DNA from: Prosthecobacter sp.
GTDB taxonomy: Bacteria; Verrucomicrobiota; Verrucomicrobiia; Verrucomicrobiales; Verrucomicrobiaceae
Length of the DNA stretch: 64,000 nt
Direction: 5' to 3'
Assembly (NCBI RefSeq): GCF_020439865.1
Contig: NZ_JAGRPF010000073.1
Span: forward strand, 10,927-74,926
The notes under the pieces were generated by a model, which worked only from the letters and a program-made list of their open reading frames with translations, was not told the DNA's origin and ran no database searches. Below, piece by piece: positions 1-16,341 of this stretch. Numbering within the stretch: position 1 is the stretch's first letter; every line of letters begins with the position of its first letter. A program made the position numbers and the translations under genes.

Positions 1-3000
1 GAGGCGGTGTGGTCAATCTTCTGGGATCCAGCGCCGGAGACAGTACGGTGGAAGGGGTCAATGTCATGGGTGGCTTCCTTGTCATGACCAATTACAACAC
101 GAACCTCAACCGTCGTGTGGGCAATGGCGCCGGTCTTACCCTGGCGGGCGGCACGCTCGTCATGGACGGCAGCGGCGCCTCCTTCACGGAAAACTTTGGC
201 AGCCTCAAGCTCAACCAGGGTGGCAACGCCATCGCCGCTGCGGGCAATGGAGTCACCAGTTTTGGTGCGGTCAGCATCGCCGGTTCGTCCATCACCCGCG
301 CGGCGGCCGGGACCATCCACTTCCAGTCCATCGGCGGCGGCGTGATCAACTTCTCGAATGCGGCGCTTCAGAACGTGGCGCGCATCGGATCCTACGCCAC
401 CTATGGTGCCAATGCGTCTTTCACGGCTTTTGCCTCTGACTGGGCCGCCACCGACGGTTCCGGCAATGTGATCGCCTACACCGGCTACGGGGTCGATTCC
501 TTTGGAGTCGGCGTGCAAACCGACGTCCAGGGCGCTGGTCTCACGGCTGCCACGACGAACTCCGTCCGTTTCAATGACGCTGCCGGAACGATCACGGGTG
601 GCGCGCTCACGCTGAACGACGGCGGCATTCTCATCACCAGCAACTACACCACGGGAACCGTGATCGGAGCCGGGGTGGACGTCACGACGGCAGCCGCTGG
701 CACAGATCTCATCATCCACAACTTTGCATCGGGGGTGGTCAACTTCGACGGCAACATCACCGGGGCACAGAACGTCGTGTTCTCCGGCGTCGGCGAACTC
801 GCGTTTGACTCGCCTAGCAGTGTGAGCAGTTCCTTGGTCAGCAGTACGACTTCCGGAGGTTCGTTCAACGTGACCGTGGACACCACAGGTCTTGTGGCAG
901 GAATGGATGTGACCGGCCTGAATATCGCGGCCGGGACGAAGATCCTCAGCATCACCGACGCCACAACGTTGGTGCTGACAAGAATGGTGACGGGCTCCGG
1001 CACCAACGACCTGACTTACGCTTCGACCACTTACACGCCGACGAACACCTACACGGGTGCCACGCACGTCACCGGCAGCGCGACCGTGTCATTCAACAAT
1101 ACCGGGGTGTTTGCCGCGAGTTCCAGCATCTTCCTCAACGGTGGCACGCTGAACTACTCCGAGGTCGGGGCGTTCAGCGGTTACATCACCCAGAACATCA
1201 CGCTGGGCGGCGGCAACGGCATCATCAATGTGACGGATGCAGGCAGCACGCTGATCTTCCGTGGGAGCACCACCAATCAGTTCTCCTCTGAAGCCAACAA
1301 CATCATCTCCGCCTACGGCACCAACAACCCCAATGCCGGCGGTCTGCAGATCATCGGTTCGGGCACCGTGCAGTTTGGCGATCGCAGCTCCGCCTCCAAC
1401 ACGCAGGACCTGCTTGGTGTGTCCAACAGTTACACCGGCCTCACCATCATCGGTGACGGTGTGAATGCAGTGCGCGTGGACATCCAGGGCCTGGGCAACG
1501 ACAACGCCCAATATTCGGTCTTCGGCACCACCCAGTCCTGGGCGGACGCCACCATCGTGAAGAACAACGCGACGATCGAGTTCTCCATGAGACGCGGTGA
1601 CGGCAGCCGGGACAATCAGATTCGCTTCCGTGAATGGTTCCAGATCGGTGAGCAGGCCGGGGACCAGATCCTGTTTGATGGGAGCACCCAGCGCCAGCCT
1701 ACATTGGATGGCATCCTGAACGTCATTGGAGATCTCACCTTCCAGACCCAGGGCAATCGCTACGGCGATGCAGGCGGCACGGGCAATTCCGAATTCCTCA
1801 TCAATCCGAATGAAGGCGGCATCATGGGTTCCGGCAACATCATCAAGATGGGAGACGGCAACCTGCGTTTCTACAAGCCTCTCCATGAATGGACGGGGGA
1901 CTTGATCCATCAGGATGGCTTCCTTGGCATCCAGATCCTTTCCGGTGCGCTCTTCAATCCGGTCGGCAAGGTCTATTTCGGCGATCCGACCGGCGCACAG
2001 ACCTCGCTGGTGCGTCTGCGCATCGAGAGTCAGTACGTGGGGAACAACACTGTGGGCATTGATTCCGGGAATGTGGATCTCACGTTCAACCGTGACATCA
2101 TCGTCAATGACAACATCCATCAGCAGGTTCAGATCTCCGCCGGTTACCTGCCGAACAGTGCGACGATTCACTTTACCAACAGCATCAACGTGGGCAACGG
2201 CTCCAGCAGCTCGGTGGACTTCTACTACGAGGACAACAACAACCTGGATCCCCTGCTCACCGGCCATGTGCAGCAGACCCTGTTCGACATCAGTGGAGAC
2301 ATCTCAGGTTCGAACAGCATCTATCTGGATGCGAACAACAACGGTGGGAACGCAAAGAACGCTCAGTTGACCGTGTTGTTCAGCGGTGACAACTCCGGCT
2401 ACAGCGGCCTGCTCACCATCGGCAAGGATGCCGGAACGACCGACAACCCGCTGCGCGGAGTGACTCTTCGCCTCGGCAATGGAACCAGCAGCGCCGCTGC
2501 GCTGGGAACGAACATAGCCGTGCGTTTCCGCAACTACGGCGTGCTGCAGCTTGCCGGCAACAGCATGACCTTCACGCGGAATTTCCTCTGGGTCGGCGGA
2601 ATCGGGTCTGTGAGCAGTGGTGCGGGCCTCTACACCTCAGCAGGCATCGAGAATGGCTCGGCCACGGCCGCCATGATCACCTTTGATTCCGGCACACAGA
2701 CAGGAGTGAACTTCCAGGACGTGGGTGTGGGTCTGCGTGATGGAGTGGCCGGTCCGCTTTTCGGCGGCGGCTCTTCGGCGCTGACCGTCGTCAAGATCGG
2801 CACCGGGGACACGGTGTTCGGTGCTGGGACAGGTGGTGACGCTGTCGTGGATGCGTTCAGCAACTACACCGGCAACACGCTGGTGCAGGAAGGCACGCTC
2901 TATGCCGGTTCGAACAACTCCTTCTCGCCCTACTCGCGCTTCATCGTGAGCGACGGGGCGAAGCTCAGCCCGTATTGGGACGAGGCGCTCACCGGTTGGG

Positions 3001-5306
3001 AGGTCACCATCGGTTCTCTTTCGGGAACTTCGGGGGCGGCGCTCAACATTGAAAACTCGAGCTTCAACGTCGGAGGTGACAACACCAGCGGCGCTGATTT
3101 CGCCGGTGTGATCAGCGGCACGGGTGATTTTTACAAGGTCGGCGGTGGGACTCAGACCCTGTCGGGAACCAATACGTTCTCGGGTCAGCTTGCCGTGGTT
3201 CAGGGTGCGCTCGTTGGGGGTAACAACGATGCGTTTGGAGATGTGACGAACACCATTTATCTCGGCGGCGCCCCCTTTGTGGGCCTCAACCCTTTGGATG
3301 CCAAGGTGGAGTTGCTGCTCTCCGGCACCGCCACGGCGGTGGCGAACCCTGTTGTCATGAATGCCTTCGACGGCAATGACGAGGGCGTCACGGTGATCGG
3401 CACCCGGCAGACGAGCGGCACCTACGGTTTCACCACAGGCGCCACGGTGGATCTCTATCAGGACATTGCCACCAACGTGTTCTTCGAAGCCGACGGCACT
3501 TCGGTGGTTCAGTTCGGTGACGCGGTGAGAGAAGGTGGCAGTGCAGCTGCCACCTCGCTGATCAAGATCGGCAGCGGCACCGTCGAACTGCAGGTCGCCA
3601 ACGACTATTTCAGCAGTGGCTCCTCCATCGCAGGAGCGGGCATCGACGGTGGCACGGTTATTCGTCACGGCACCTTGAGCGTGTTTAACGACAGCTCGCT
3701 TTCTTCGACTGTAGTGGAACTGGGTGACACCCGCTACGAACTGGCGGACGCCTATGTGGCGACGACCGCTTCTCTTCTCTTCCAGAGCAGCACCGGCAGC
3801 TTTGATGCCGCCAGCGACGGCGCCGGTGGCGCAGGCAATGGCGCCTTCCTGAATGTCGCCGCGCTGGTGGACGGCGTGACGCTCACCGCGGCGGATGTCG
3901 GCAAGCGCATCCTGGTGAAGAACGAAAGCACCAATCCAGAGTACAACGGCGTCTATGAGGTGGTGAGCGTGGATGACAGCTGCGCCCAGATGAATCTGGT
4001 GCGTGTGTCCGACTATGACGAAACGACCGAAATGCTCTATGGCAGCAGCATTGCCGTCACCAACGGCACGTCCCAGGCCGGCATGCAGTTCTTCCAGGCG
4101 TCGGCGAACGTGGACATCGTCAACAACGCCGTTTATGACCCGGTGCACTGGCTGGTGGATGTGCCGAATGCTGACGTGGCCCTGCTGGCCGCCAACAGCG
4201 GCATGACCATCTTCAATGACATCGACGTCAATGATACCAATGGCACCGGCAGCACCATCCTTGGCGGCACCTTCACCACGGGGTCGTCGGAGTTCTCAGG
4301 AAACATCACCCTGCAGCACATCGATGGCGTGGACAACGTCCGTGAGTTGATCTTCTCCTCGGCTTCGAATGACACGGGCGGTGTCAACGTCACCGGCGTC
4401 GTCTCCGAAGCCCAGGGCGGTGACACGCTCAGTGTGAACAAGCAGGGTGCAGGCACGGTGACGTTTGCCAGCGACAACACTTACACTGGCAAGACCACGG
4501 TCACCGAAGGAACACTGGCTCTTACGGGGCTGGGAAATGTTTCGGCCACTTCATGGATTGAGGTCAACACCGGAGCCACGTTTGATTTCTCCGGAACCGG
4601 CAGTGACTTCACCTACGATGGAACGATGAGCGGCTCTGGGACCGTGGTGACGGATGTGACGACCAGGCTGGTCGTGGGCACGGACGGCGGTGCAGGTGTC
4701 CTGCGTGTCGGCATGTCTTCCGATCCGACCAATGTTGGCACTGCTGGCGACGGCATTGGTGTCCTGACGGTGAACGGCAACCTGGTGCTCGCAGGTGACA
4801 CCACGGGTGCGGACCGTCTTACCCTTCAGATGGGAGCCACCAACGGCGCGGACTTCAATGATGCCGCCAACATCGCTGCGCATCTCGGTGCCGGAAACTT
4901 CAACACCTGGATCCTCACCCAGGGAACCACCTATGATGCCTACAATTCCGGCAATCATGATCGCCTCGTGGTCACCGGTGAAGCGACTTTGAACCCTGGT
5001 GGCTACGTCCGTTTCACGAGCTCTGTCAGTGATTATCAGCCGGTGGTGGGAGATGTGTTCAATCTGATCGACTGGGCCACGGTCACCGACAACGGTTTTG
5101 ATGTCGGCAACGGCGGTTCCTTCCGCTCCGGCGGCCTTCTGGGAGATCTCGAACTGCCCGATCTGAGTCTCTCAGGCCTCTTCTTTGACACGAGCTTGTT
5201 CACCTCATACGGCATTGTCGTGGTGGTGCCAGAGCCCGGCCGCATGTCGCTGCTTCTGAGCGGACTGATGCTGCTGTTCTTCCGCCGCCGCCGTCCGCGT
5301 AACTGA
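1..5306 (+). CDS. Giant passenger-associated-transport-repeat (autotransporter beta-strand repeat) protein with C-terminal PEP-CTERM sorting signal; 5' end lies outside the window
   Basis: The frame is open from the window edge (GGC GGT GTG...). It has several PATR-like repeats (e.g. YKVGGGTQTLSGTNTFSG, NKQGAGTVTFASDNTYTGKTTVTEGTL) and is G/T/N/S-rich. It ends VPEPGRMSLLLSGLMLLFFRRRRPRN (PEP, TM helix, Arg cluster) with no autotransporter beta-barrel. Confidence 0.92.
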   Translation, partial: GGVVNLLGSSAGDSTVEGVNVMGGFLVMTNYNTNLNRRVGNGAGLTLAGGTLVMDGSGASFTENFGSLKLNQGGNAIAAAGNGVTSFGAVSIAGSSITRAAAGTIHFQSIGGGVINFSNAALQNVARIGSYATYGANASFTAFASDWAATDGSGNVIAYTGYGVDSFGVGVQTDVQGAGLTAATTNSVRFNDAAGTITGGALTLNDGGILITSNYTTGTVIGAGVDVTTAAAGTDLIIHNFASGVVNFDGNITGAQNVVFSGVGELAFDSPSSVSSSLVSSTTSGGSFNVTVDTTGLVAGMDVTGLNIAAGTKILSITDATTLVLTRMVTGSGTNDLTYASTTYTPTNTYTGATHVTGSATVSFNNTGVFAASSSIFLNGGTLNYSEVGAFSGYITQNITLGGGNGIINVTDAGSTLIFRGSTTNQFSSEANNIISAYGTNNPNAGGLQIIGSGTVQFGDRSSASNTQDLLGVSNSYTGLTIIGDGVNAVRVDIQGLGNDNAQYSVFGTTQSWADATIVKNNATIEFSMRRGDGSRDNQIRFREWFQIGEQAGDQILFDGSTQRQPTLDGILNVIGDLTFQTQGNRYGDAGGTGNSEFLINPNEGGIMGSGNIIKMGDGNLRFYKPLHEWTGDLIHQDGFLGIQILSGALFNPVGKVYFGDPTGAQTSLVRLRIESQYVGNNTVGIDSGNVDLTFNRDIIVNDNIHQQVQISAGYLPNSATIHFTNSINVGNGSSSSVDFYYEDNNNLDPLLTGHVQQTLFDISGDISGSNSIYLDANNNGGNAKNAQLTVLFSGDNSGYSGLLTIGKDAGTTDNPLRGVTLRLGNGTSSAAALGTNIAVRFRNYGVLQLAGNSMTFTRNFLWVGGIGSVSSGAGLYTSAGIENGSATAAMITFDSGTQTGVNFQDVGVGLRDGVAGPLFGGGSSALTVVKIGTGDTVFGAGTGGDAVVDAFSNYTGNTLVQEGTLYAGSNNSFSPYSRFIVSDGAKLSPYWDEALTGWEVTIGSLSGTSGAALNIENSSFNVGGDNTSGADFAGVISGTGDFYKVGGGTQTLSGTNTFSGQLAVVQGALVGGNNDAFGDVTNTIYLGGAPFVGLNPLDAKVELLLSGTATAVANPVVMNAFDGNDEGVTVIGTRQTSGTYGFTTGATVDLYQDIATNVFFEADGTSVVQFGDAVREGGSAAATSLIKIGSGTVELQVANDYFSSGSSIAGAGIDGGTVIRHGTLSVFNDSSLSSTVVELGDTRYELADAYVATTASLLFQSSTGSFDAASDGAGGAGNGAFLNVAALVDGVTLTAADVGKRILVKNESTNPEYNGVYEVVSVDDSCAQMNLVRVSDYDETTEMLYGSSIAVTNGTSQAGMQFFQASANVDIVNNAVYDPVHWLVDVPNADVALLAANSGMTIFNDIDVNDTNGTGSTILGGTFTTGSSEFSGNITLQHIDGVDNVRELIFSSASNDTGGVNVTGVVSEAQGGDTLSVNKQGAGTVTFASDNTYTGKTTVTEGTLALTGLGNVSATSWIEVNTGATFDFSGTGSDFTYDGTMSGSGTVVTDVTTRLVVGTDGGAGVLRVGMSSDPTNVGTAGDGIGVLTVNGNLVLAGDTTGADRLTLQMGATNGADFNDAANIAAHLGAGNFNTWILTQGTTYDAYNSGNHDRLVVTGEATLNPGGYVRFTSSVSDYQPVVGDVFNLIDWATVTDNGFDVGNGGSFRSGGLLGDLELPDLSLSGLFFDTSLFTSYGIVVVVPEPGRMSLLLSGLMLLFFRRRRPRN

Positions 5307-5313
5307 TCGGACT

Positions 5314-5359
5314 GGTGCCTGACATGAATCCCATGTCACGGCACCTGGATCAGTTTTTT
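5314..5359 (+). terminator. Probable intrinsic terminator after the PEP-CTERM gene
   Basis: Hairpin GGTGCC-TGACATG/CATGTCA-C-GGCACC starts 7 nt after the stop; a T6 run follows a few nt downstream. Confidence 0.55.
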
Positions 5360-5377
5360 CTCACCACATCGGAGTTT

Positions 5378-5407
5378 CTGCGAACGCATTGAATCGTGCG
5401 TTCGCAG
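5378..5407. repeat. Perfect 11-bp inverted repeat in the 495-bp spacer before the Verru_Chthon cassette
   Basis: CTGCGAACGCA-N8-TGCGTTCGCAG, with no U-tract. Confidence 0.6.
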
Positions 5408-5801
5408 TCGTGATGATCCACGAACTTGTTCGAGGACGGGAGTGAAGCGATCGTCTGTTGTTACTTCGTAAAAGCAGGAATGGTCCCTCTTGGAAGAACG
5501 ATCGTGTGTCATGGATGTCAGACGCACTCCACTGGTTGTATGGAAATGCTTTGCCGCAGATTTGCTTCATGTGGCTGGCAAATGGCTGGTGTTAGTTGTG
5601 TTCCTCCAGCGGTTTCGAATTTGCGTGGGAGAATAAGCAAAAGCTGCACAGTTAGGTAGGTCCATGGTGTGATCACGGATGAGTTCATCGCGCACACATG
5701 CGCCAACCACGGCCTCATGGTTAAAAGAGCGCCCATCAGGCAAAATCGTTTCAAACCAAGGAACTGCACACGGCAGTGCTTTCAGCCCAATCAGTCATGT
5801 T

Positions 5802-8800
5802 ATGAATACATCATCCATACAAAGTAAATCATTGAAGCGCGGATTCCGGTCGCTCGGTAACCTGTTGCGTCGTCGTCGTGCGGTTGCGCTGATTACAGTG
5901 CTCAGTGTGCTGGCACTGACACTGGTGCTGCTCACCGCATTGTTAAGCGCCACGCGTGTCGAGTACAATTCCACCGTGGCACAGGTCGAAGGCGCCAAGG
6001 CACGATTGCACGCTGACTCGGTGATCAATCTGGCCATCGGTCAGATTCAGCGTGGCACCCATCAGGATGACTCCGCAACTGGTCGCGAAATATGGGCTTC
6101 GCAGCCGGGCATGATCCGGCAATACAAGGAGGACGGAACGCTGCTCCGTGGGCTCAAGCTGTATTCTGATGGAAAGATGGTGGCCACGACCGAGGCCGAA
6201 ATCGTCGCTGATACGCCTCCAACCGATTGGGACAAACAAACCGCGCAGTACGTGGACCTCAACGAGCCCGTCGTTCGGATGAACCCCACCGATCCCAGTG
6301 GTACTCCGCGGTTGTATTTCCCGATCATAGATCCGCGTGCCTATTCGACCACGTCCACCCGTTCGGTGGAAGGCTTCACCTATTCTCAGTATGCCAACGG
6401 CACCTCCGGCCAGGCTTTGGACGGCGTGGTGGGGCCGTCGAGCGGCACTGATGGTGAGAGCAAGCAACGTCTGCCGATGCCGGTGGAGTGGCTGTACATG
6501 CTCAAGGACGGCACGTTGGGACATCTCGACTCCACGGGAAAATTTGTTGGGGGTGGTGGGCAGGAAGCCACACGGGAGAATCCGATGATATCCCGTGTGG
6601 CCTTCTGGACCGACGATGAGTCCACGAAGATCAACATCAACACGGCAGGGGAGGGGACACCATGGGATACGCCACGCCTGTTCCATGAGCGTGATGGCGA
6701 GTGGGCGCGGTTCCAGCCGATGGCTTATGAGTATCAGCGCTATCCAGGACATCCCGCCACGGTCTGCATGAGCACCGTGTTGTTTCCCGGTCAGAACATG
6801 AATCCGCTGACCTCGGACACATCCGGGTTCGCCCAGGCGCTGAAGTACAAGGAGGCGATCTATGATCTCATGCCGAAAATCTTGCCGGGAGGCTCCAAGG
6901 CGGGATCGGTGCTGGTTCCGGTGAACCGCAACTTCTCCCCAACCAACTTCAGCGAGGTGCAGAAGGCGCTCGGAGAACGCCTGTTCCCCAGCGCGGACGA
7001 GTTTCTGCTGCGCTCCGCCGTGCAGAGCGATGGTGAGCGTACTGAAATCAATCTGGGAACCACTCAGATATGGGCGGGGCTTGAAAACCACGACGTGGTG
7101 GAACGCCTTCGGTCGTTTTTGACACCTCGCAGCCGTTCATCGGATCTGAACCCCTTTGGCTACCCGAAGATCTCCATGTGGCCGGTGCATCGCACCAACA
7201 CAACGCAGTACCGCACCGTCTTTGACAACGCTATCGTGAAATGCTCGCAGTTGGCAGGAAAGGACTACTTCTTCACCCGTCAGGACTGCACCAGCCAGAC
7301 GGAGCTGACCACCATCACGCGCAACAGGCAGCTCTTCGATTATCTCATGACATTGACGGGGACGCCCATTCCGGGCTTCGGAGCATCTGGTGCATCCTTT
7401 CTCAAAAAATACGGTGACAACCGGCAGCAGATTCTCGTCGAGATCTTCGACTACATTCGCAGCACCAACTTGTACGATGACAACATCGCCGCGCAGAATG
7501 TCGGCACGGATCCGAGCATCAAAGGCCTGCCGGATTCGCGGCTCGTTTCCAAATCATCCGGAATGGCATCAAAGACCTTCACGCCGATGCGCAACTCCAC
7601 CGGCGGCAGTTATCCGGGACACGGGCAGGTCATGCCCACGGTGATGCCGAAGGGCAAGGGCGAGATCTACCGCGGCATGGGCCGGTTCCTGACCATCAGC
7701 GAAGTCGGGCTTCACTTCATCTGCTGCGCGCAGGGAACCACAAAGGCCGGAGGCCTCTCCTCTCCCAAGATCGACCCCAAAGGACCTGCACCGAACGGCT
7801 ACACGCCTCCCCGGTGGCGCGGTGGTGAATGGGGCAACTACAACAACTGGTACTCGAATTTTCCCCCTCTGAGCACCACCAATCAGGATCCGAAAAACGG
7901 CTTCTACAAGAACCTGTATCCCGCCGCCCATCAGCTCGAAGGCTACGCCGGTGATGATCCCAAGCACCCAGGCTACAACCCGATGAACTGGAACTGGACC
8001 TTGGACAAGGACACTCCGCTGACAGACAACGTGAAACGGGTCCAGGCCACCTTCCTGCTCGAATGGTTCAGCCCTTCCACGGGATGGACGCTCATCAATC
8101 CAGACATCGCCATCGAAGTGGATGCGAGTTCGCTGATGATCGGCGGCAAAAAGATGTTCCCTGTCAATGGAGGCAAGACGCTCATCCGCCCGTTCAAGCA
8201 CATGAGCAGCGCCAACGGCGTGTATCAGCGAGGCGGCACCATTTCCTACCGCGCATTCCTGCAGGAGCGCAAGCTGCCCGCCGTCGCGAAGGGCGTGAAT
8301 GGCTATACATCGGGAAGCATCCTCTTCGACGACACCAACATTCCCGCGAATAACTCCCAGGTGCCTTACAAAGGAGGCATCAGCTACGCCAGTTACGCGA
8401 CCAAGTCGGGTGAGCTGAGGCAATGCAACCAGTACAATCTTGTCAGTGACTTCCTGGACATTCCCGGTGGTGATGCAGGTAAGATCCCTTTCGGTGGTGG
8501 CACGGTGGTGGTGAAGATCCTGTCGAACGACGCCTCGCCCCAGGTGCTGCAGACTTTCAACTTCAGTTTTCCGCAAGGCCAGTTTCCTTCGCCCATCCTC
8601 GCACAGAAGGATGAGGACACGCGCTGGAGTCAGAATGCTGACGGCAGCTGGCATATCTGGCAGCCTGTGCCAGCGCCCTACTGGTGGTCATTCCATTCGG
8701 ACGGAGCGCTGGGCCGGGACAAGACGGGCAAGATCACCACGGCGGCGGCCATCCCCTCCACCCGCATGGGCGGCAGGTTCCGTTACGTCGGCAACGAAAT

Positions 8801-10343
8801 GGGCAACTACGACAACAACTTCTTTTACCGGGGCAACCTGGCTCTGAATATCGACACCATTCAGTCGCTGGTGCTAAGGCATGGCGATCCGCGTCTGACA
8901 ATGGGCCAGTTTGTGGTGCCGGCCACGGAGTTCGAACAACATCGTCTTTATGGGAAACAGCGCATGGCGCACAACCTCGTGCTGCTGAACTGGAGTGAAG
9001 GCCCTGGACTCGATCGAGGTGAGGACAAGAAGGGCTGGCGCCTCGTCAAAAATGCAAACTACCACAACGCTTTCCTGCCCGACCATCCTTACTCGGCCGC
9101 CTGTGGTGCCGGATTGCAGAAGTATGGCGACTTTGATCGTGGGATCGCCAATCAGACCGACGGTGCCTACATCAACAAACCGGACGAAGGCAACACCTAC
9201 AGCGTCATCAGCAGTTCGACCGGTGAGCAGCTGGTTCCGTACTTCACGAATCCTTGGATCACCTGGATCGGAGGGGCCACCTACTTCTCACCGAACCGGC
9301 AGGTGGCCTCACCGGGCATGTTTGGCTCGTTGCCCACCGGCGTCCATCAGGCCGGTGGTTCAGGCGGCCAGAAGCGCGAACCATGGCGCACGCTGCTGTT
9401 CCGTCCCCAAACATGGAGCACCAAGCAAGGGCTGCAGCCGCATATCGGCGCGCCCAAGGTGCTGAATGGCTACGGTAAGAGTGGTCTGCCCATTCGAGGC
9501 ATCGATCCGCCCGACTATCTGTTCATGGACTTCTTCTGGATGCCCGTGGTGGAGCCTTATGTCATCAGCCAGCCAGGATCCACGGCAGGCAAGATCAACA
9601 TGAACTACCAGATGGCGCCGTTCCGCCATATCCGCCGTGCCACAGGCCTGGCGGCCGTGATGAAGAGCGAGCTTCTCAGTGCCGTTCCGGTCAGCGATGC
9701 CAACTTCTACCTGCGGCGTCCTGGTGGTGCGCCGTCTGGCAAAGGCCAGACGTGGTTCTGGAAAGACGACACCAGTTCGTCGGGGAAAAAATACTGGCAC
9801 CGCCAGATCGACGTCGATGCGACGCTGAAGCTCTTCGACGAACGCTTCAACTCTGGCTTTGCCTTCATCTCCCCTGCGCAGATCTGTGAAATGTACCTCC
9901 TGCCAAAGAAGGCAAACAGCTCGGACACTCTCGTGCCACCCTCGTGGCCGACGACCATCAGCGGCCTGCTCAAAACCGGCAGCAGCAGCATCCTGACGTT
10001 CTGGGAAAACCACGCGGCCACGGCTGAAAATCTCAAAGAGCGCCCTTACACCAACATGTATCCGCGTCTCACCACGCGCTCAAACACCTACCAGATCCAC
10101 ATGCGCATTCAGACGATCAAGAAGGCGCGTTCATCCGATCCGACGAAGTTTGTCGTTGGAAAAGACACCGTAGGTTCCGAGTACCGCGGCTCTGCGGTGA
10201 TCGAGCGCTATCTGGATCTGAACGATCCAGCCTTGGATACGACAGCCAAACTTGATTACGCGTCCGGCAGCCCGCTTTCGAAGCAGTCGATGGAGGAGTT
10301 GCACCGCTTCCGTGTCATCGCGCAAAAGCGCTTTGATCCTTGA
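5802..10343 (+). CDS. Verru_Chthon cassette protein A (PilX/GspK-like N-terminus, about 1513 aa)
   Basis: Basic leader then RRRRA|VALITVLSVLALTLVLLTALL (prepilin-like helix without Glu5). Family-type motifs include WASQPG, RVAFWTDDE..KININTA, KYGDFD.G, YINKPDEG and GSEYRGS..IERY.D. First gene of the four-gene cassette; start moved to the ATG at 5802. Confidence 0.88.
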   Translation: MNTSSIQSKSLKRGFRSLGNLLRRRRAVALITVLSVLALTLVLLTALLSATRVEYNSTVAQVEGAKARLHADSVINLAIGQIQRGTHQDDSATGREIWASQPGMIRQYKEDGTLLRGLKLYSDGKMVATTEAEIVADTPPTDWDKQTAQYVDLNEPVVRMNPTDPSGTPRLYFPIIDPRAYSTTSTRSVEGFTYSQYANGTSGQALDGVVGPSSGTDGESKQRLPMPVEWLYMLKDGTLGHLDSTGKFVGGGGQEATRENPMISRVAFWTDDESTKININTAGEGTPWDTPRLFHERDGEWARFQPMAYEYQRYPGHPATVCMSTVLFPGQNMNPLTSDTSGFAQALKYKEAIYDLMPKILPGGSKAGSVLVPVNRNFSPTNFSEVQKALGERLFPSADEFLLRSAVQSDGERTEINLGTTQIWAGLENHDVVERLRSFLTPRSRSSDLNPFGYPKISMWPVHRTNTTQYRTVFDNAIVKCSQLAGKDYFFTRQDCTSQTELTTITRNRQLFDYLMTLTGTPIPGFGASGASFLKKYGDNRQQILVEIFDYIRSTNLYDDNIAAQNVGTDPSIKGLPDSRLVSKSSGMASKTFTPMRNSTGGSYPGHGQVMPTVMPKGKGEIYRGMGRFLTISEVGLHFICCAQGTTKAGGLSSPKIDPKGPAPNGYTPPRWRGGEWGNYNNWYSNFPPLSTTNQDPKNGFYKNLYPAAHQLEGYAGDDPKHPGYNPMNWNWTLDKDTPLTDNVKRVQATFLLEWFSPSTGWTLINPDIAIEVDASSLMIGGKKMFPVNGGKTLIRPFKHMSSANGVYQRGGTISYRAFLQERKLPAVAKGVNGYTSGSILFDDTNIPANNSQVPYKGGISYASYATKSGELRQCNQYNLVSDFLDIPGGDAGKIPFGGGTVVVKILSNDASPQVLQTFNFSFPQGQFPSPILAQKDEDTRWSQNADGSWHIWQPVPAPYWWSFHSDGALGRDKTGKITTAAAIPSTRMGGRFRYVGNEMGNYDNNFFYRGNLALNIDTIQSLVLRHGDPRLTMGQFVVPATEFEQHRLYGKQRMAHNLVLLNWSEGPGLDRGEDKKGWRLVKNANYHNAFLPDHPYSAACGAGLQKYGDFDRGIANQTDGAYINKPDEGNTYSVISSSTGEQLVPYFTNPWITWIGGATYFSPNRQVASPGMFGSLPTGVHQAGGSGGQKREPWRTLLFRPQTWSTKQGLQPHIGAPKVLNGYGKSGLPIRGIDPPDYLFMDFFWMPVVEPYVISQPGSTAGKINMNYQMAPFRHIRRATGLAAVMKSELLSAVPVSDANFYLRRPGGAPSGKGQTWFWKDDTSSSGKKYWHRQIDVDATLKLFDERFNSGFAFISPAQICEMYLLPKKANSSDTLVPPSWPTTISGLLKTGSSSILTFWENHAATAENLKERPYTNMYPRLTTRSNTYQIHMRIQTIKKARSSDPTKFVVGKDTVGSEYRGSAVIERYLDLNDPALDTTAKLDYASGSPLSKQSMEELHRFRVIAQKRFDP

Positions 10344-10364
10344 TTGTCCAGACACTTCATCCCT

Positions 10365-10910
10365 ATGAAAACAGCCATCTCTCATGCATCACACCCGAGG
10401 CGCTCGAAGCGTCAGTCATCCGCCTTCTCGCTGGTGGAGGTCACCATCGCGGTCGCCATAGCCGCACTGGGTTTCATTTCTGTGCTTGGTCTGCTCCCCC
10501 AGGGAATCAACATGGCCCGCAATTCGGCGGAAATGTCCGTGGGCTCCAAAATCATTCAGAAACTCAACGGTGAGCTTCAATCAATGCCATGGAGCCACAT
10601 CACATGGACGGGCTATGGGCCGCTGCGTTTCTTCACCAACGAAGGTACGGAGATGACCACCGCAGACACCTCCGAAGAAAACATGGCGGCCTCCCTGGCC
10701 TTCGTTGCTTCCGTCTATGTGCCGGAAAAACCCCTGGATGTGGTCCTTCCGGTTGGAAGCAGCAGTGGTTCTGCCAGCGCGGCGGAGGCCTATCTGCGGC
10801 GCGTGAAGATCTGCGTCGCTACCTCCGGAGACCAGTCCTTTGACTTTAACACGGCGTCGCCCCTGCGCATCACGTCGGCCTGCACCCTCGTCGCCAAGAT
10901 GGGGGAATGA
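10365..10910 (+). CDS. Verru_Chthon cassette protein B (prepilin-type N-terminal cleavage/methylation, GspI/PilV-like)
   Basis: SSA|FSLVEVTIAVAIAALGFISVLGLLP N-terminus; about 181 aa; stop overlaps the next start (ATGA). Confidence 0.88.
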   Translation: MKTAISHASHPRRSKRQSSAFSLVEVTIAVAIAALGFISVLGLLPQGINMARNSAEMSVGSKIIQKLNGELQSMPWSHITWTGYGPLRFFTNEGTEMTTADTSEENMAASLAFVASVYVPEKPLDVVLPVGSSSGSASAAEAYLRRVKICVATSGDQSFDFNTASPLRITSACTLVAKMGE

Positions 10911-12007
10911 CCATCCACACCGCCACCCCTGTTCGAACTATGAAACATCATCATGACACATCGCGACGGCACGGATTCTCTTTGGTGGAGGTTGCGCTCT
11001 CCATGGTGATCCTCTCCATCATCCTGCTGGTGGCCGTGCAGGTGCTGGGGCAGACCCAGCGCACATGGAAGCGCGGTGTGGCCCGTGTCGAACAGTTTCG
11101 CGAAGCGCGGATGGCTTATGAAAGCATCACGCAAAATGTCAGGCAGGCGATTCTGAACACCTATCAGGCATATCAATACAACAACGGCGAAACCCCGACG
11201 ATTCCCCAGTCGAAAACCCAGCTGCCCACGAAGTACATCCGCCAGTCGGAGCTCCAGTTCGTCACAGGGCAGGCTCAGACGCTTCTTCCGGGCACCTCGG
11301 CCGCAATGCTGGTGACGCATGCCATGTTCTTCCAGGCCCGCCTGGGGCTGAGCGAGCGTGACGGTTACGAGGGCCTCAACCGGCTGTTGTGTGGCCGCGG
11401 GTATTTCATCATGCATGGCAGCGATGACGCCTTCCGTCCGCCGCATGTGACCACCACGCGGTCTCGGTTTCGGCTCTGGGAGTATCGTCCGCCGGCGGAG
11501 GAGAATACTGTCTATGCCGTCAAACCCGGGCAGTGGTTCAACAAGGCGGCCACCAATGTCATCAGCTCAGGAGAAACCATCGATGAACCCGCGGACACTC
11601 GTCCCATTGCTGAAAACATCGTCGCGCTCATCATTTCACCCCAGGTCACCTCTGACGATGCGGCCTACAAAAAGACGAAGCCTTGGTGGATCGCGCCAAA
11701 TTACTCCTATGACTCCACCAAGCTCGTCAACACCACTAGTGACAGCCCGCAGGGAACCCAGCATATGCTGCCGCCACGTGTGGTGGTGACGCTGGTGGCC
11801 ATTGATGAAGCCTCCGCCCGCAATCTGGCGGATCGCAACGAGGAGGCCATGCCAGAGCTTGTTCCGAAGGGGGCCTTCACCAACCGCGATGATCTACAGA
11901 CGGACCTCAAGACCCTGGAGGCAAAGCTGCGCTCCGAGCAGCTCAACTACCGGGTCTTCTCGTCCACCATCAACATGCGCAACTCAAAATGGGGGCTCCT
12001 CCGATGA
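10907..12007 (+). CDS. Verru_Chthon cassette protein C (prepilin-type, GspJ/PilW-like)
   Basis: RRHG|FSLVEVALSMVIL motif, FREAR.A motif, 366 aa; ATGA overlaps on both sides. Confidence 0.88.
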   Translation: MTIHTATPVRTMKHHHDTSRRHGFSLVEVALSMVILSIILLVAVQVLGQTQRTWKRGVARVEQFREARMAYESITQNVRQAILNTYQAYQYNNGETPTIPQSKTQLPTKYIRQSELQFVTGQAQTLLPGTSAAMLVTHAMFFQARLGLSERDGYEGLNRLLCGRGYFIMHGSDDAFRPPHVTTTRSRFRLWEYRPPAEENTVYAVKPGQWFNKAATNVISSGETIDEPADTRPIAENIVALIISPQVTSDDAAYKKTKPWWIAPNYSYDSTKLVNTTSDSPQGTQHMLPPRVVVTLVAIDEASARNLADRNEEAMPELVPKGAFTNRDDLQTDLKTLEAKLRSEQLNYRVFSSTINMRNSKWGLLR

Positions 12008-12654
12008 AAAACATTCGTTCACCACAAAACCTTCGCAGACGCGTCCACCGTTCAGCCTCAACCGGCTTCAGCCTGGTGGAGATTGTCGTCGTGGTTGCCA
12101 TCGTGGCCCTGATCTTCACGTTCGCCACACCCTATACTCTGGCCGCGATCCAGTCGGCCAGTATCTCATCCGCAGGGGACAGCCTGATGCTCAAGCTCTC
12201 CCAGGCCCAGCAGCGGGCGCTGACGGACAACAAACCCACCGGGGTGGATTTCTTTTTCTACACCAAGGACGGAATCACAGGCTGCCACGCCATTCAGCTC
12301 ATCCGCTACGATCCTGCCACCAATCAGGCGACTTCGATTGAGGAGCCGGTGTACTGGGGGGAAGGGCGTGTGGTGTTGGTGCAGGGAGCGCTCTCCCCGA
12401 TGTTTGCCAGCAACGTTCCGGCGTCGAGCACCGGATCTGCCACACGTGCGCCTTTCAAAGATCTCGAAGCCACCTTCAACCGGATCATCTTTTACCCCAA
12501 CGGATCCACAAACCTGCGTGTGCCGCTGCGAAACGCCTACCTGACCCTGGTTTCCATCAACAACTACAAGGAGGAGCTCGCCGATGCTCCGCCCAACTAC
12601 TACACGGTTCAGCTCGATCCCGTCACCGGGCGTGCGCATTCGTATCGTCCGTGA
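12004..12654 (+). CDS. Verru_Chthon cassette protein D (prepilin-type, GspH/FimT-like)
   Basis: STG|FSLVEIVVVVAIVAL motif, L.QAQQRA, FYPNGST, and C-terminal QLDPVTGRAHSYRP. Confidence 0.88.
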   Translation: MKNIRSPQNLRRRVHRSASTGFSLVEIVVVVAIVALIFTFATPYTLAAIQSASISSAGDSLMLKLSQAQQRALTDNKPTGVDFFFYTKDGITGCHAIQLIRYDPATNQATSIEEPVYWGEGRVVLVQGALSPMFASNVPASSTGSATRAPFKDLEATFNRIIFYPNGSTNLRVPLRNAYLTLVSINNYKEELADAPPNYYTVQLDPVTGRAHSYRP

Positions 12655-12682
12655 TGTGCCTTGGGCTGGGATGATTCGCCGT

Positions 12683-12712
12683 TTGCGGTCTGGCCGGCTC
12701 TCCGCCTATATT
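12683..12712 (+). promoter_or_regulatory. Putative sigma70 promoter for (near-)leaderless hemB mRNA
   Basis: TTGCGG-N18-TATATT, followed 8 nt later by the ATG at 12721. Confidence 0.45.
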
Positions 12713-12720
12713 CGGGGCCG

Positions 12721-13698
12721 ATGCATCTCCCAATCCGCCCCCGCCGCAACCGCCAGTCTCCCGCCATTCGCGATCTCGTTCGCGAGACGGAGCTGACGCC
12801 GGGTCATCTGATCTACCCTTTGTTCATTCAGGAGGGCGGGGAAAACACGCCGATCTCCTCCATGCCGGGTTGCACACGCTGGAGCGTGGAAGGACTCGTG
12901 CAGGAGGCCGGAGAGGCGCATGCCCTAGGCGTCCCTGCCGTGGTGCTGTTCCCACGCATCCCAGATCAGCTCAAGACGCGTGATGCGGCGGCCTGCCATG
13001 CGGATGATGGACTGGTGCCGCGCGCGATTCGCGCTCTGAAAGCGGCGCATCCCACACTTGCGGTGATCACTGACGTGGCGCTCGATCCCTACAACAGCGA
13101 CGGTCATGACGGTCTCGTCTCCGATGACGGCCGCATCTTGAATGATGAAACCGTGGCTGTGCTACAGCAGCAGGCGCTCTGTCACGCGCGTGCGGGCGCG
13201 GACATCGTCGCGCCGAGTGATATGATGGATGGTCGCGTGGCTGCGATCCGTGCGGCACTCGACGAGGCCGGCTTCCAAGGTGTTTCGATCATGAGCTACA
13301 CCGCGAAGTATGCCAGCGCCTACTACGGACCGTTTCGTGGTGCGCTGGACTCGGCACCGAAGGCCGGCGACAAGAAGACCTATCAAATGGACCCGGCGAA
13401 CTCGCGTGAAGCCCAGCGCGAGGCTGCGATCGACGAAGCCGAGGGAGCCGACATCCTCATGGTGAAACCCGCAGGGCCTTATCTCGACATCATCGCCAAG
13501 TTGCGTGCCGCCACCATGCTGCCCATCGCGGCCTATCAGGTTAGCGGCGAGTATTTGATGATCAAAGCTGGTGCCGCCGGTGGTTGGATCGACGAGGCGA
13601 AGATCGTGAACGAATCGCTCACCGGCATCCGTCGTGCGGGTGCGGACATGATCCTCACTTACTTTGCGAAGCAGTGGGCGAAGGGGTGGCTGAGTTAG
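12721..13698 (+). CDS. hemB: Porphobilinogen synthase (delta-aminolevulinate dehydratase), Asp-type metal site
   Basis: RPRRNR N-terminus, DVALDPY..DGHDG, APSDMMDGR, SYTAKYASAYYGPFR, MVKP and AYQVSGEY motifs. Confidence 0.97.
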   Translation: MHLPIRPRRNRQSPAIRDLVRETELTPGHLIYPLFIQEGGENTPISSMPGCTRWSVEGLVQEAGEAHALGVPAVVLFPRIPDQLKTRDAAACHADDGLVPRAIRALKAAHPTLAVITDVALDPYNSDGHDGLVSDDGRILNDETVAVLQQQALCHARAGADIVAPSDMMDGRVAAIRAALDEAGFQGVSIMSYTAKYASAYYGPFRGALDSAPKAGDKKTYQMDPANSREAQREAAIDEAEGADILMVKPAGPYLDIIAKLRAATMLPIAAYQVSGEYLMIKAGAAGGWIDEAKIVNESLTGIRRAGADMILTYFAKQWAKGWLS

Positions 13699-13702
13699 CC
13701 TA

Positions 13703-13929
13703 GTCTAACGTCCTAGCGCAGGCACCGCTGGGGCGGGGTGGCGGATCGAACGAACGCAAAACGAGCACTTGGCGCGGCGGGTGCAAGCTCAAACGAAGCG
13801 ACTGACGAACAAATCACGCCAAGACTCTGAGACGGCAACGTAGCAGCCGCCGTGCCAAGTGCGGTCAAGCTACGGTAAGGCATGTCCGACACAGCAGCCC
13901 CAGCGGTTGCCTGCCGCTCATGGTTCGCC
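13703..13929 (-). mobile_element. Integron attC-like recombination site (unusually long, 227 bp)
   Basis: On the minus strand: R'' GGCGAAC, 5-nt spacer, L'' GCG[G]CAGG, CA[A]CCGCTGGGGC ... GCCCCAGCGGTG, L' CCTGCGC, 6-nt spacer, R' GTTAGAC (perfect GTTRRRY). This gives 19 paired bases with two extrahelical bases at the canonical positions. It lies 65 bp downstream of a co-oriented gene. Confidence 0.8.
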
Positions 13930-13993
13930 CTCGTATGGCCGATGATCTAATCTGTAGTTATCTCGGCAGGGACGTGACAGATGAGAATCCGGA

Positions 13994-14476
13994 CTACTGG
14001 ATATGGGCGATCATGTCTGTGAATGAAGCAAAAGCTCGAAACTCAGCATCAATCTCTTCTCTGGTCCTGGCCCATGTAGCGATGTCCAGTCCGCCGCAAT
14101 CATGGTCAATGTGATAAATCGCTCCGAATGCGTCAGCATCAAGGCACATGCAAAGTGGATCCCCGCCGTCAGTATATGCTATCGGTAGCATGGGAATAGG
14201 GATCCTAACCTCCTCTATCGATCCGGTCACAAGCGAGTAGCCAAGCAAGAGTCGTCGGTCAAGGTCTTCAAGGCCAAGAATGTGCGAGAGACATACCACG
14301 GAGTCATCGTCAGTGGACACCTCAAACTCGGCCTCTCCGCCGCTGCATCGCTCGAGGAAATCCCTATAGTCGGAAGGTAGGGTGTGCCCAACCTGCTGTT
14401 CAAACCAACGAATGTCGGAAGGGGTCAACACTGATCGTGTCTGTTCAATAGCCGCTACGAAATCATCAACGATCAT
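13994..14476 (-). CDS. SMI1/KNR4 (SUKH-superfamily) immunity-type protein carried as an integron-like gene cassette
   Basis: LTPSDIRWFEQQVGHTLPSDYRDFLERCSGG ... LPIAYTDGGDPLCMCLD...GAIYHIDHD ... FASFTDMI. Codon usage is atypical versus neighbours; flanked by attI-like and attC sites. Confidence 0.85.
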   Translation of the reverse strand: MIVDDFVAAIEQTRSVLTPSDIRWFEQQVGHTLPSDYRDFLERCSGGEAEFEVSTDDDSVVCLSHILGLEDLDRRLLLGYSLVTGSIEEVRIPIPMLPIAYTDGGDPLCMCLDADAFGAIYHIDHDCGGLDIATWARTREEIDAEFRAFASFTDMIAHIQ

Positions 14477-14548
14477 GGTGTGAGGCGTTGTTGGTTGGGC
14501 GAACAATTCAGATAGGAAACACTTCTGTCGGTTTGCCTGCACCTTTAT

Positions 14549-14568
14549 AGCCAACAAAAGTGTCGGAA
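14549..14568 (-). mobile_element. Putative attI-like simple site (integron attachment site)
   Basis: Minus strand TTCCGAC-ACTTTT-GTTGGCT: an inverted L box, a 6-nt spacer and a GTT core, directly upstream of the cassette gene, in AT-rich DNA with a further 12-bp IR (14610-14621/14651-14662). Confidence 0.55.
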
Positions 14569-14709
14569 AAGTACGGGGTGGCCTGCTTCATAATGTGGGT
14601 TTAGCCGCAAATAGCGGAATAGGGAAACAAAAACGCCGAATAACATCCCGTATTTGGCTATTGGAGTATGAAAAATAACACGCAGTTGTCGGGAGACGGC
14701 TTCGTGGAG

Positions 14710-16341
14710 TCAATTCGTCTTCGACTTGCTGCCGGCTTTGCTGGTCGCTGCTTTGGCTGCACTTTGGCTCTCGCCGGATTTGCTGGTCTGTGGCGTGGCG
14801 GTTGTCGGTGGAGTTGCGGTCGATGACGACGAGGCTGCAGGTGAGGACGTCGCATTGGCCGGTGGCGCGGTTTGGGCTGGTGTTCCAGTGGCTGGCGGGG
14901 AAGAGCCATCCGCAGCGGGTGTGGTCGTAGCAGGCGGTTCGGGTTTCTTGAACGGATCTTCCCAAGTATGCAGGACGTAGCCGGCACCGATGCCGCCGAC
15001 TTCGCCGATCAAGGCGGCGCATTTTTCCTTCCACTTCGCGAGATCAGGCGCTGAACGCTTTTCCTCGGCCGTGCCAGGGAAGATGAGGTAGGTTACCTTG
15101 AGATCGCTTTCCGGGCGGATGTAAGGCGTGGACTTGGGATTGATGGTCTTGGCCATGAGGAGCGAGGCTTCGCCCATCTTGAAGCTGGGGCCGTAGTCGC
15201 CGCAGATGGCGGGGTAGATTTTGCCCTCGTGGATGACGGCGGCGTAGTCGCCGATCTGCGGGGTGAACTTGTTTTGATCAGCGTAGCCGCGGAACAGCAG
15301 TGAGATCACAATGAAGGGATCTTTTTCAGCGATCAGGCTGCTGCGGGCTTTCATTTCCCCGACCTCGACCTTGAGCGTGCTGATGAGCGAGCTGAGTTCG
15401 CGATTGCGCGAAGCCGGGAGTCCTTTGACGGCATACTCGTCCTGGGCCTTTTTCAGCCGTTCCTCCCACTTGGCGAGCAGCGGGTTGGGATTCTTCGTGG
15501 TCTTGGGCCAGGCGTAGCTGGTGAAGGGCTGGTAGTAGTCGGAGAGATAGATGTACTCGGAAAGCGTGGGCATGCGGTCGCCGTCGGACCCGTCAGCGAC
15601 GACATCCATCTCGGATTGAATCAGCAGGGCGCGCCGCTGGGTGGCGGGGTGGGTGAGTTCGAGGATGGTCTCGGTGTCGTAGAAATTGTGACGGTCGAGG
15701 ATTCTGTTGAGTCGTGTGAGGTCGTTCTGCACACGATTGGTTTTGTTCTCGTAGAGCTTGTAGTAGAAGCCGGAGACCTTTGCGGCAGGCAGCATGGCAT
15801 CAAGCCCGGGCAGGATGGCCGGGAGGTGCTTGTTGATGCGTGAGAGTTCCACCGCGGTCTGGTTTGCCTTCGGCACGCGGATGCTGAGCTGGAATTCGGC
15901 CTTGTAGGACTCTGGATCGAGACGCTCGAGACTGGCGAAACTGCCCTGCTCGGTGAGCAGGTTGGTTTTGACGGTGATGCCGTTGAAGAGTGTGGCGACG
16001 TCGATGTCTTTGCGCGGAATGTATTTCTCCGGAAGAGGGGGCTGCACTTCGCGGATGACTTCCTTGGTCACCTCTTTGACGACGGGGACCTCCTTGATCA
16101 CATCGTGCATCACATCACGCGTGATGACGCGCTCCTTGGTGGTGCGGGCGGATTCGACGATGTCCTGGATGCCTCGTTTGATCTTGCCAGCGAAGGGGGT
16201 GAAAGGGAGCAGCAGTCCGGTGAGGATGATGAGCAGGAACAACACTCTGGCGGCAGAGCTGAAGCAGCCCCGCTTCTGACGTGGCTGCCACGAGGCGGGC
16301 GGCGGATCGTTCTCGACGGGGGTGTCAGGTTCCAAAGACAT
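14710..16341 (-). CDS. Membrane-anchored glycoside hydrolase family 75 (chitosanase-like) domain protein
   Basis: N-terminal TM helix; MDVVADG, DPFIVI, GDYAAVIHEGKIYPAICGDYGP..KMGEAS motifs; P/A/T/S-rich C-terminal tail. Confidence 0.72.
   Translation of the reverse strand: MSLEPDTPVENDPPPASWQPRQKRGCFSSAARVLFLLIILTGLLLPFTPFAGKIKRGIQDIVESARTTKERVITRDVMHDVIKEVPVVKEVTKEVIREVQPPLPEKYIPRKDIDVATLFNGITVKTNLLTEQGSFASLERLDPESYKAEFQLSIRVPKANQTAVELSRINKHLPAILPGLDAMLPAAKVSGFYYKLYENKTNRVQNDLTRLNRILDRHNFYDTETILELTHPATQRRALLIQSEMDVVADGSDGDRMPTLSEYIYLSDYYQPFTSYAWPKTTKNPNPLLAKWEERLKKAQDEYAVKGLPASRNRELSSLISTLKVEVGEMKARSSLIAEKDPFIVISLLFRGYADQNKFTPQIGDYAAVIHEGKIYPAICGDYGPSFKMGEASLLMAKTINPKSTPYIRPESDLKVTYLIFPGTAEEKRSAPDLAKWKEKCAALIGEVGGIGAGYVLHTWEDPFKKPEPPATTTPAADGSSPPATGTPAQTAPPANATSSPAASSSSTATPPTTATPQTSKSGESQSAAKAATSKAGSKSKTN

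Follow-up and report, generated by a model that had tools for sequence, protein, structure and literature searches.

Among the systems described so far, the closest to the locus reported here are single attC sites lacking an integron integrase (SALINs), for which genomic insertion at GWT sites has been documented. A nearby integrase is usually lacking in other phyla, both for SALINs and for clusters of attC sites lacking an integron integrase (CALINs) (bioRxiv 10.1101/2022.09.11.507474). Integrons have also been reported in Verrucomicrobia (PMC4889954). The attC sites themselves are characterized by an R box, an unpaired central spacer, an L stem with two or three extrahelical bases on the R''-L'' arm (on the bottom strand, a G in L'' and a T 6-8 nt from it) and a variable terminal structure (VTS) (PMC2727003). 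We analyzed 64,000 nucleotides of a Prosthecobacter sp. genome (contig NZ_JAGRPF010000073.1 of assembly GCF_020439865.1, positions 10,927 to 74,926; hereafter the window), in which an initial annotation, made from the sequence alone, had pointed to a solitary integron-like cassette with a SUKH (SMI1/KNR4) gene, wedged between convergent hemB and GH75 genes. The element is very likely a solitary integron-type cassette, i.e., an open reading frame (ORF) plus an attC site, of the SALIN kind and carrying a SUKH-1 gene. Elements of this kind are known; here the attC site is unusually long. The features are listed in Table 1.

Table 1. Features of the cassette and its flanks, in window coordinates (position 1 is the first letter of the window).
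Feature	Position	Strand	Basis or remark
Gene cassette, 795 bp	T14503 to G13709	-	Two G|TT crossover points
Conserved cassette 5' end TTCGCCCAACCAACAACGCCTCACACC, 27 nt	14503-14477	-	Directly before the SMI1 ATG
SMI1/KNR4 (SUKH-1) gene, 160 aa	14476-13994	-	PF09346 E 8.7e-15; PF14568 E 2.8e-9
attC-type site, 227 nt (R'', spacer, L'', VTS, L', spacer, R')	13929-13703	-	Fold, covariation, family copies
R'' core GGCGAAC	13929-13923	-	Begins 64 nt past the SMI1 stop codon
L'' arm, 21 nt	13917-13897	-	Aligned to the reverse complement of the other arm
VTS, 162 nt	13896-13735	-	Inverted repeat; hypervariable loops
Inner 20-bp stem in the VTS	13862-13843 with 13784-13765	-	Inverted repeat
L' arm, 19 nt	13734-13716	-	Inverted repeat and arm alignment
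R' core GTTAGAC	13709-13703	-	Ends 4 nt from the hemB stop codon
Leader, 206 bp, AT-richer, non-coding	14709-14504	-	Between the GH75 stop codon and the cassette
hemB (porphobilinogen synthase)	12661-13698	+	Pfam ALAD, E 4.7e-136; right-hand flank, outside the element
GH75-domain protein	16341-14710	-	Pfam Glyco_hydro_75, E 5.5e-10; left-hand flank, outside the element

Like a SALIN, the element consists of one ORF and one attC site on a chromosome, with no other attC site or integrase nearby. At the 64-kb scope of the window we found one attC site, no significant match to a covariance model of ordinary attC sites (R1, described below), and only one copy each of the hairpin and the cassette start motif. 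We detected no tyrosine recombinase among 27 window ORFs that were scanned against Pfam and that include every likely gene longer than ~280 aa; the lack of a Phage_integrase match among them agrees with the initial annotation, which had seen no adjacent integrase. In a complete integron, the array would adjoin an intI gene, coding for a tyrosine recombinase that has an IntI-specific extra domain, and the first cassette would be preceded by an attI site and a Pc promoter. The junctions at G|TT also fit the GWT consensus for genomic insertion into SALIN target sites. Unlike in SALINs, the sequence to the left of the insertion is not anonymous: it is a leader also seen ahead of other arrays. The comparison extends to sedentary chromosomal integrons and CALINs, such as the Vibrio cholerae repeats (VCR; Cury et al. 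2016, PMC4889954). As in those systems, a family of attC sites with at least 80% similarity follows unrelated small ORFs, mostly without functional annotation, within one clade, and like the VCR sites the window family has a long branched VTS. They differ in that the window has just one cassette, distant from any array. The related arrays that we sampled have no adjoining integron integrase (IntI) and mix several classes of attC (65, ~100 and 190-227 nt).

The 3' part of the element has the anatomy of an attC site. The two spacers of the hairpin, CATGA (5 nt, after R'') and TAGGAC (6 nt, before R'), are non-complementary and unpaired, and two extrahelical bases, G13914 (the fourth base of L'') and A13908, lie 6 nt apart on the R''-L'' arm. 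The R' core GTTAGAC fits GTTRRRY exactly. R'' and R' pair at five of seven positions in the window and at all seven in the family consensus GCCGAAC/GTTCGGC (the family R'' consensus, GSCGAAC, is fully complementary to the family R' GTTCGGC). Since this layout is that of the published attC sites (PMC2727003), the description of the 3' site in the initial annotation, with both extrahelical bases and the GTTAGAC core, was correct to the base. The site shares with attC_aadA7 (Bouvier et al. 2009, PMC2727003) the inverted R''/R' cores AAC...GTT, the unpaired central spacer, an R' of the form GTTRRRY, and R''-L'' extrahelical bases 6-8 nt apart, the first of them inside L''.

To the anatomy we can add the fold and its covariation, both of which were observed directly. 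The fold z-score of the hairpin is -4.2 for the minus strand and -6.0 for the plus strand, and none of 200 shuffled sequences folds as well. Across five copies of the site, 92.6% of the cells in proposed pairs are standard pairs, and 12 pairs show compensatory double changes (5 in the L stem and 7 in the 20-pair inner stem). This count was reached by none of 500 shuffles, and controls in which the pairing partners were slid gave 1-3. The L stem alone has 19 pairs, with 98.9% of cells paired across copies, and both bulged bases are kept in copy L045a although its L stem carries 5 compensatory changes. Loops are only 56-72% identical between copies. Stems are 95-100% identical among the close long copies L043, L046 and L045b, and those of the L045a and L047 copies diverge more. 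From these comparisons we infer that the hairpin structure is under selection. Rfam searches of the window at the gathering threshold and of 13400-14900 at E <= 10 returned no relevant family but only noise (no 6S RNA, transfer-messenger RNA (tmRNA) or signal recognition particle RNA), and ARAGORN predicted no tRNA or tmRNA at the hairpin.

Further copies of the site, 80-89% identical to that of the window, follow unrelated small ORFs in metagenomic contigs. They were retrieved with a conserved 27-mer of the hairpin, which led to two Joint Genome Institute contigs with wholly different flanks, and by using the spurious ORF across the hairpin as a protein query. The search for other copies that the initial annotation had proposed thus found them in the arrays of three contigs (L045, L046 and L047). 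In L045, two copies alternate with ORFs in the order ORF-site-ORF-site-ORF. The L046 copy, 89% identical to the window site, lies 3' of an ORF with a weak PycTM-like match (E 1.6e-4, 22.5 bits; Pfam cut-off 27.2), and in L047 and L048 one copy stands within a run of ~14 small co-oriented ORFs. The intervals between the L047 ORFs are occupied by attC sites of ordinary appearance, 65-100 nt long, whose R'' is GCCGAAC or CCCAAAC and whose R' is GTTCGGC, GTTAGGC or GTTGTGC. We built the covariance model R1 from seven ~100-nt sites of L047 only; since RNAalifold gave a wrong local structure for these, we assigned the pairing manually and verified it. R1 recovered two L047 sites outside its training set. 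A further match, in L046 (52.9 bits, E 2.6e-13), belongs to the array that also has the long copy. Because an ordinary attC detected by an independent model shares the L046 array with the long copy, the long element holds an attC position in arrays. Shorter members of the same attC family measure 190, 178 and 64 nt.

The cassette ORFs of L042, L043, L045, L046 and L047 gave only the weak PycTM match and DUF4279 in Pfam. The array of L047 (3279-12521, also in L048) comprises ~14 small ORFs mostly without Pfam matches (the exceptions are DUF4279 and a weak SseB match), contains three attC size classes and points toward a housekeeping xerC gene. Some gene calls in these arrays run across attC sites. 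Two called genes of L047 (6116-6853 and 11556-11861) contain attC matches and are probably mis-called, and a 320-aa gene call in L046 (1718-2680) spans an attC (R1 match at 2014-2109) and probably represents two cassettes that were merged in gene calling. Directly upstream of the attC copy in L043 (2911-3014) and L044 (1-93), an ORF on the other strand starts MNNVMRKRYSNDFRDQA, which resembles the beginning of orfA of an IS3-family transposase; cassette arrays are a known target of insertion sequences.

The boundaries of the cassette can be read from the same copies. The cassette is joined to its flanks at GAATTG|TTCGCCCAACC on the left and at TAGGACG|TTAGAC on the right. All copies share ...TAGGAC-GTT, which continues in the arrays with CGSCCAACYAACAGCGTC and in the window and L043 with unrelated sequence; homology between the window site and the other copies stops exactly past the GTT. 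The crossover would therefore lie between G13709 and T13708, with TTAGAC as the target side, as far as the sequence comparison indicates. After every attC in L045 and L046, and after several in L047, follow ~25 nt of the form TTCGSCCAACYAACAGCGTC, with the next ATG 20-30 nt on. The start motif common to all family cassettes, GTTCGSCCAACYAACAGCG, matches the window only once, at 14504-14486 (GTTCGCCCAACCAACAACG), with 1 mismatch where 0.08 matches are expected, and this match lies 28 nt before the SMI1 ATG. The family start motif TTCGCCCAACCAACA accordingly sits at G14504|T14503. Because this match is the only one, the cassette is T14503-G13709, 795 bp in length. The initial annotation had set the left boundary at an attI-like GTT (14555-14553) and had predicted a cassette of about 846 bp; both have to be revised, as the start motif lies 51 nt further in and the cassette measures 795 bp from there to R'.

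Related genomes lack the insert. A query with the GH75 protein retrieved 38 loci from genomes of Prosthecobacter, Brevifollis and other Verrucomicrobiaceae, with a best-segment amino-acid identity of 55-88% (68-88% in all but one); hemB is 88-94% identical across relatives. Neither the SMI1 gene nor the hairpin was present at the GH75 locus in any of the 38. The convergent GH75-hemB neighbors were kept in nine of these loci, with contents that differ from those of the window, which answers the comparison of this junction suggested at the outset. Four of the nine junctions have 15-35 bp between the genes; the other five have 231-555 bp, occupied by other small ORFs, with no room for the hairpin. 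We found no attC or cassette start motif in the GH75-hemB spacers of the relatives. These spacers (L004, L005, L007, L022 and L026; L008, L011, L018 and L029) vary by species, and the short ones hold a short palindrome. Among the small ORFs in the longer spacers are two homologous putative membrane proteins.

In the window, the convergent hemB and GH75 genes enclose 1011 bp, taken up by the leader, the SMI1 ORF and the hairpin, all on the minus strand. This arrangement, seen in the ORF layout and in Pfam, is the one given in the initial annotation, and so is the atypical composition: GC is 0.46-0.56 over 13900-14700 (leader plus gene) and ~0.60-0.65 in the flanks. The leader carries the motif TTTGCGGCTAAACCC at 14611-14597, its only occurrence in the window, and ends in GGCAAAC-N26-GTTCGCC, whose termini are complementary at 6 of 7 positions, as in a minimal R''/R' pair. 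Over 89 nt, the leader has 70% identity to a stretch of L042 upstream of the first cassette-like unit, and collinear blocks also precede the L047 array. The blocks shared with L042 and L047 come in the same order: TTTGCGGYTAAAMCC, CCACCCCGY.C..TTTCCG, GGCTNTAAAG.TGC, and xCAAAC-N26-GTYCGCC. The leader is thus seen at three unrelated chromosomal loci (the window; L042 5186-5400; L047 2578-3255), each time upstream of the first cassette and in no case beside an integrase. It might represent either an attI/promoter platform or a cassette without an ORF.

Just past the GH75 stop codon, at ~14705-14671 on the minus strand, a hairpin CACG...CGTG is followed by TTATTTTT; the homology of the leader with L042 starts inside it, at GCGTGTT. 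By its sequence, this hairpin with its T-run looks like an intrinsic terminator. A simple terminator scan did not report it, and Rfam gave there only a chance-level match to tfoR. Our promoter and terminator scan of 13600-14800 returned nothing, including no sigma-70-like promoter.

The gene carried by the cassette is a SUKH gene, as first annotated. The PF09346 match scores 55.9 bits (cut-off 25.4) and covers residues 17-157 of 160, i.e., the whole domain. By its Pfam family membership, the product is a putative immunity protein of a polymorphic toxin system. No toxin gene adjoins the SMI1 gene and none is recognizable among the scanned window ORFs, which confirms what had been noted for the adjacent genes and extends it to the 27. 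In these respects the gene is similar to the orphan SUKH/SMI1-KNR4 immunity genes described by Zhang, Iyer and Aravind (2011, PMC3113570), in being a small stand-alone SUKH-1 gene with no adjoining toxin gene. The known orphans usually form arrays 3' of a toxin gene, where they arise by displacement (PMC3113570), whereas the window gene sits in an integron-type cassette between housekeeping genes. The exact SMI1 protein was seen only on two short metagenomic contigs, at the same locus. Homologues were otherwise found only at 51-53% identity, in Verrucomicrobiaceae, at another locus between PBP1A and mlaE. At that locus, the interval from the SMI1 homologue to mlaE in L041 (6502-7368) has ~790 bp more than in L042, with ~45-nt direct repeats (AAGTCACCAAGCCGTTGYTTRCCTTCCG...) at its ends; the extra ~790 bp resembles a site-specific insertion.

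The center of the hairpin is polymorphic. Two haplotypes coexist at the window locus in one activated-sludge run (window 13745-13886; L001 1213-1463). They differ at ~45 positions in ~140 nt, with no indels, and more than 1 kb of flanking sequence is identical. The L001 haplotype adds two compensatory pairs in the inner stem. The variant center is probably a gene-conversion patch from another attC copy, to judge from the pattern of differences. The metagenome that contains both haplotypes (run X1) also holds at least two other family members. In this run we observed an attC with a short interior (46 nt between the arms) and near-identical arms, at ~34x depth, as well as a 369-nt contig with a third long variant and a different upstream flank, at ~3x depth. 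Two other origins of the L001 variant were considered and rejected: inversion of the hairpin center, because the conserved blocks are collinear, and a diversity-generating retroelement, because the differences fall into contiguous blocks and not at scattered A positions.

A mechanism consistent with these observations can be outlined. The attC site would fold as single-stranded DNA into the hairpin, and an integrase would recognize the R box, the unpaired spacer and the bulged L stem. This integron integrase would be encoded elsewhere, in this genome or in a donor. The circular cassette would have recombined at G|TT with a target of the form ...GAATTG|TTAGACTAGG, 7 nt from the hemB stop codon, and the insertion would have produced the present junctions GAATTG|TTCGCCC and GGACG|TTAGAC. 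Under this scheme the excised circle is expected to carry the junction GCGCTAGGACG|TTCGCCCAACCAACAACG and the empty site the sequence CCTATCTGAATTG|TTAGACTAGGCTAACTCAGCC. Transcription of the promoterless SMI1 gene might start in the 206-bp leader or continue from the GH75 gene by read-through, and the gene product would protect the cell from a nuclease-type polymorphic toxin of its neighbors.

The interpretation as a solitary integron-type cassette, which is also that of the initial annotation, is supported by the copies in arrays, the covariation, the arrays shared with ordinary attC sites, the end of homology at GTT and the absence of the insert in relatives. That the cassette was mobilized in trans or is a relic, as had also been proposed, is supported as part of this same core reading, in which the recombinase itself is the component that we infer. 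Several observations weigh against the interpretation. At 227 nt, the site is longer than the usual attC range, and about four times as long as attC_aadA7; attC sites usually measure 57-141 nt. Its R'' core, GGCGAAC, fits RYYYAAC in part only (AAC and the first R) and so poorly compared with attC_aadA7, and the first extrahelical base on the presumed bottom strand would be a C and not the usual G, although the second, a T, fits. A further difference from attC_aadA7 is that ~25 nt beyond R' are conserved in arrays. R1 has no significant match to the window site, for which it must bridge the 162-nt interior; its best match on the right strand of the window is only the R''/R' pair of the leader mini-site (9.8 bits, E 4.4). 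Even within its own array, R1 gives just 13.7 bits to a 64-nt site of the window's sequence class. An integron integrase was seen neither in the window ORFs scanned nor beside the related arrays sampled, and the closest SMI1 homologues (L041 and L042) have no recognizable attC. Finally, neither the empty site nor the circle junction was seen in contigs of four sludge runs (X1-X4), from assemblies that drop rare forms.

We weighed four other explanations. The hairpin could be a structural element only, such as a bidirectional terminator of hemB and SMI1 or a repeat resembling repetitive extragenic palindromes or miniature inverted-repeat transposable elements, with SMI1 an ordinary lineage-specific gene. 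It does lie between convergent genes, where a terminator is expected and where relatives have short hairpins, and both the lack of an integrase among the scanned ORFs and the lack of a significant R1 match would follow. However, the element recurs 3' of unrelated ORFs, both in tandem and interspersed with ordinary attC sites; its homology stops at GTT, after which comes a conserved cassette start; its bulged bases are kept through compensatory changes; and the hairpin has no T-run and, apart from the R boxes, shows neither terminal inverted repeats nor target duplications. We consider this explanation highly improbable. Least credible of all is that the hairpin region encodes a small RNA or a small protein (ORF 13892-13713, minus strand, 59 aa). 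The fold is strong on both strands, the frame is open in the window, L001, L043, L045b, L047, and the ORF (window 13713-13892) is predicted as a protein in public collections (P0004, P0005 and P0006). Yet a 1-nt deletion in L046 shortens it to 42 aa, there is no Pfam match and no Rfam match even at E 10, the variation lies in blocks that coincide with loops and not at third codon positions, and open frames are common at high GC. We rejected a coding small ORF, and the hairpin-spanning ORF is almost certainly spurious.

Closer to the preferred interpretation are two explanations that concern how the cassette moves and what travels with it. A recombinase other than IntI, e.g., of the Xer type, could move the cassettes, which would make this an integron-like system and not an integron. 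This would account for the lack of IntI near any sampled array and for sites that are off-canon (the first extrahelical C, the 25-nt conserved cassette start and the length), and a XerC-type gene does abut the distal end of the L047/L048 array. That gene, the sole recombinase near a related array, scores 300 bits as XerC and 133 bits against the integron-integrase profile TIGR02249 (cut-off 265), but it is a conserved single-copy orthologue of Prosthecobacter and Brevifollis (70-90% identity), and relatives with 87% and 74% identical copies (L049 and L050) have no array beside it. We therefore rejected this housekeeping XerC as the array recombinase; its orthology also assigns L047 to the bacterial family from which the window comes. 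In addition, most CALINs and SALINs of other phyla likewise have no nearby integrase, and integrons have been reported in Verrucomicrobia, so movement by a recombinase other than IntI seems very unlikely to us. A more serious, if still doubtful, candidate takes the leader and the cassette as one unit, either an integrase-less mini-integron, made up of a portable 206-bp attI/promoter platform and one cassette, or the stump of a larger array or integron that has lost its intI, and not as one cassette inserted at a random GWT site. In its favor are the collinear leader blocks upstream of the first cassette at the unrelated L042 and L047 loci, the absence of a counterpart of the leader in the relatives' GH75-hemB spacers, and a target-side crossover core, GTTAGAC, that fits GTTRRRY in full, as the cores of attI and attC sites do. 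On the other side, the similarity is weak (70% over 89 nt in L042, short blocks only in L047), the 27 nt between the GH75 stop codon and the start of leader homology leave no room for an intI remnant, and no known mechanism moves an attI platform without an integrase.

Around the cassette, the window is core chromosome, with menaquinone genes, SMC, aroB and miaA recognized by Pfam; tuf and rpoBC are probably also present, judging by position. Upstream of hemB (window 9-12654) lie a 1765-aa ORF with a PATR autotransporter repeat and a 1554-aa ORF without a Pfam match. Three small proteins come next after both of these giant ORFs, and pilin-like N-terminal methylation motifs are present in the two of the three that were scanned. 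This region gave no recognizable toxin domain.

What is unusual here, compared with the described systems, is the length of the attC site, the conserved integrase-less 206-bp leader and the polymorphic hairpin center. An extension of the solitary-cassette interpretation, which we regard as unlikely, is that Prosthecobacter-like Verrucomicrobiaceae have a cassette lineage of their own, with attC sites of up to 227 nt (covariation-maintained inner stem, hypervariable loops, a first extrahelical C), a 25-nt conserved start on every cassette and a portable integrase-less leader of ~200 bp as attI/promoter platform, and with cassettes such as the SUKH one swapped between scattered platforms by an integrase in trans. 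If this were true, the leader would seed mini-arrays at several chromosomal junctions, and the polymorphism of the hairpin center would record ongoing exchange between sites.

For the solitary cassette itself, the findings indicate that single integron cassettes occur in core chromosomal regions of Verrucomicrobiaceae, a group hardly studied for integrons. The default maximum attC size of IntegronFinder is 200, so a default scan probably misses the 227-nt site of the window; because the site exceeds the usual search size limits, the number of such cassettes is probably underestimated. Should the recurring leader without an integrase prove to be an attachment or promoter platform, it would bear on the origin of CALIN and SALIN elements. 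One of the single cassettes holds a gene for putative immunity to contact-dependent or secreted toxins, and integron recombination may thus be one route to orphan immunity genes.

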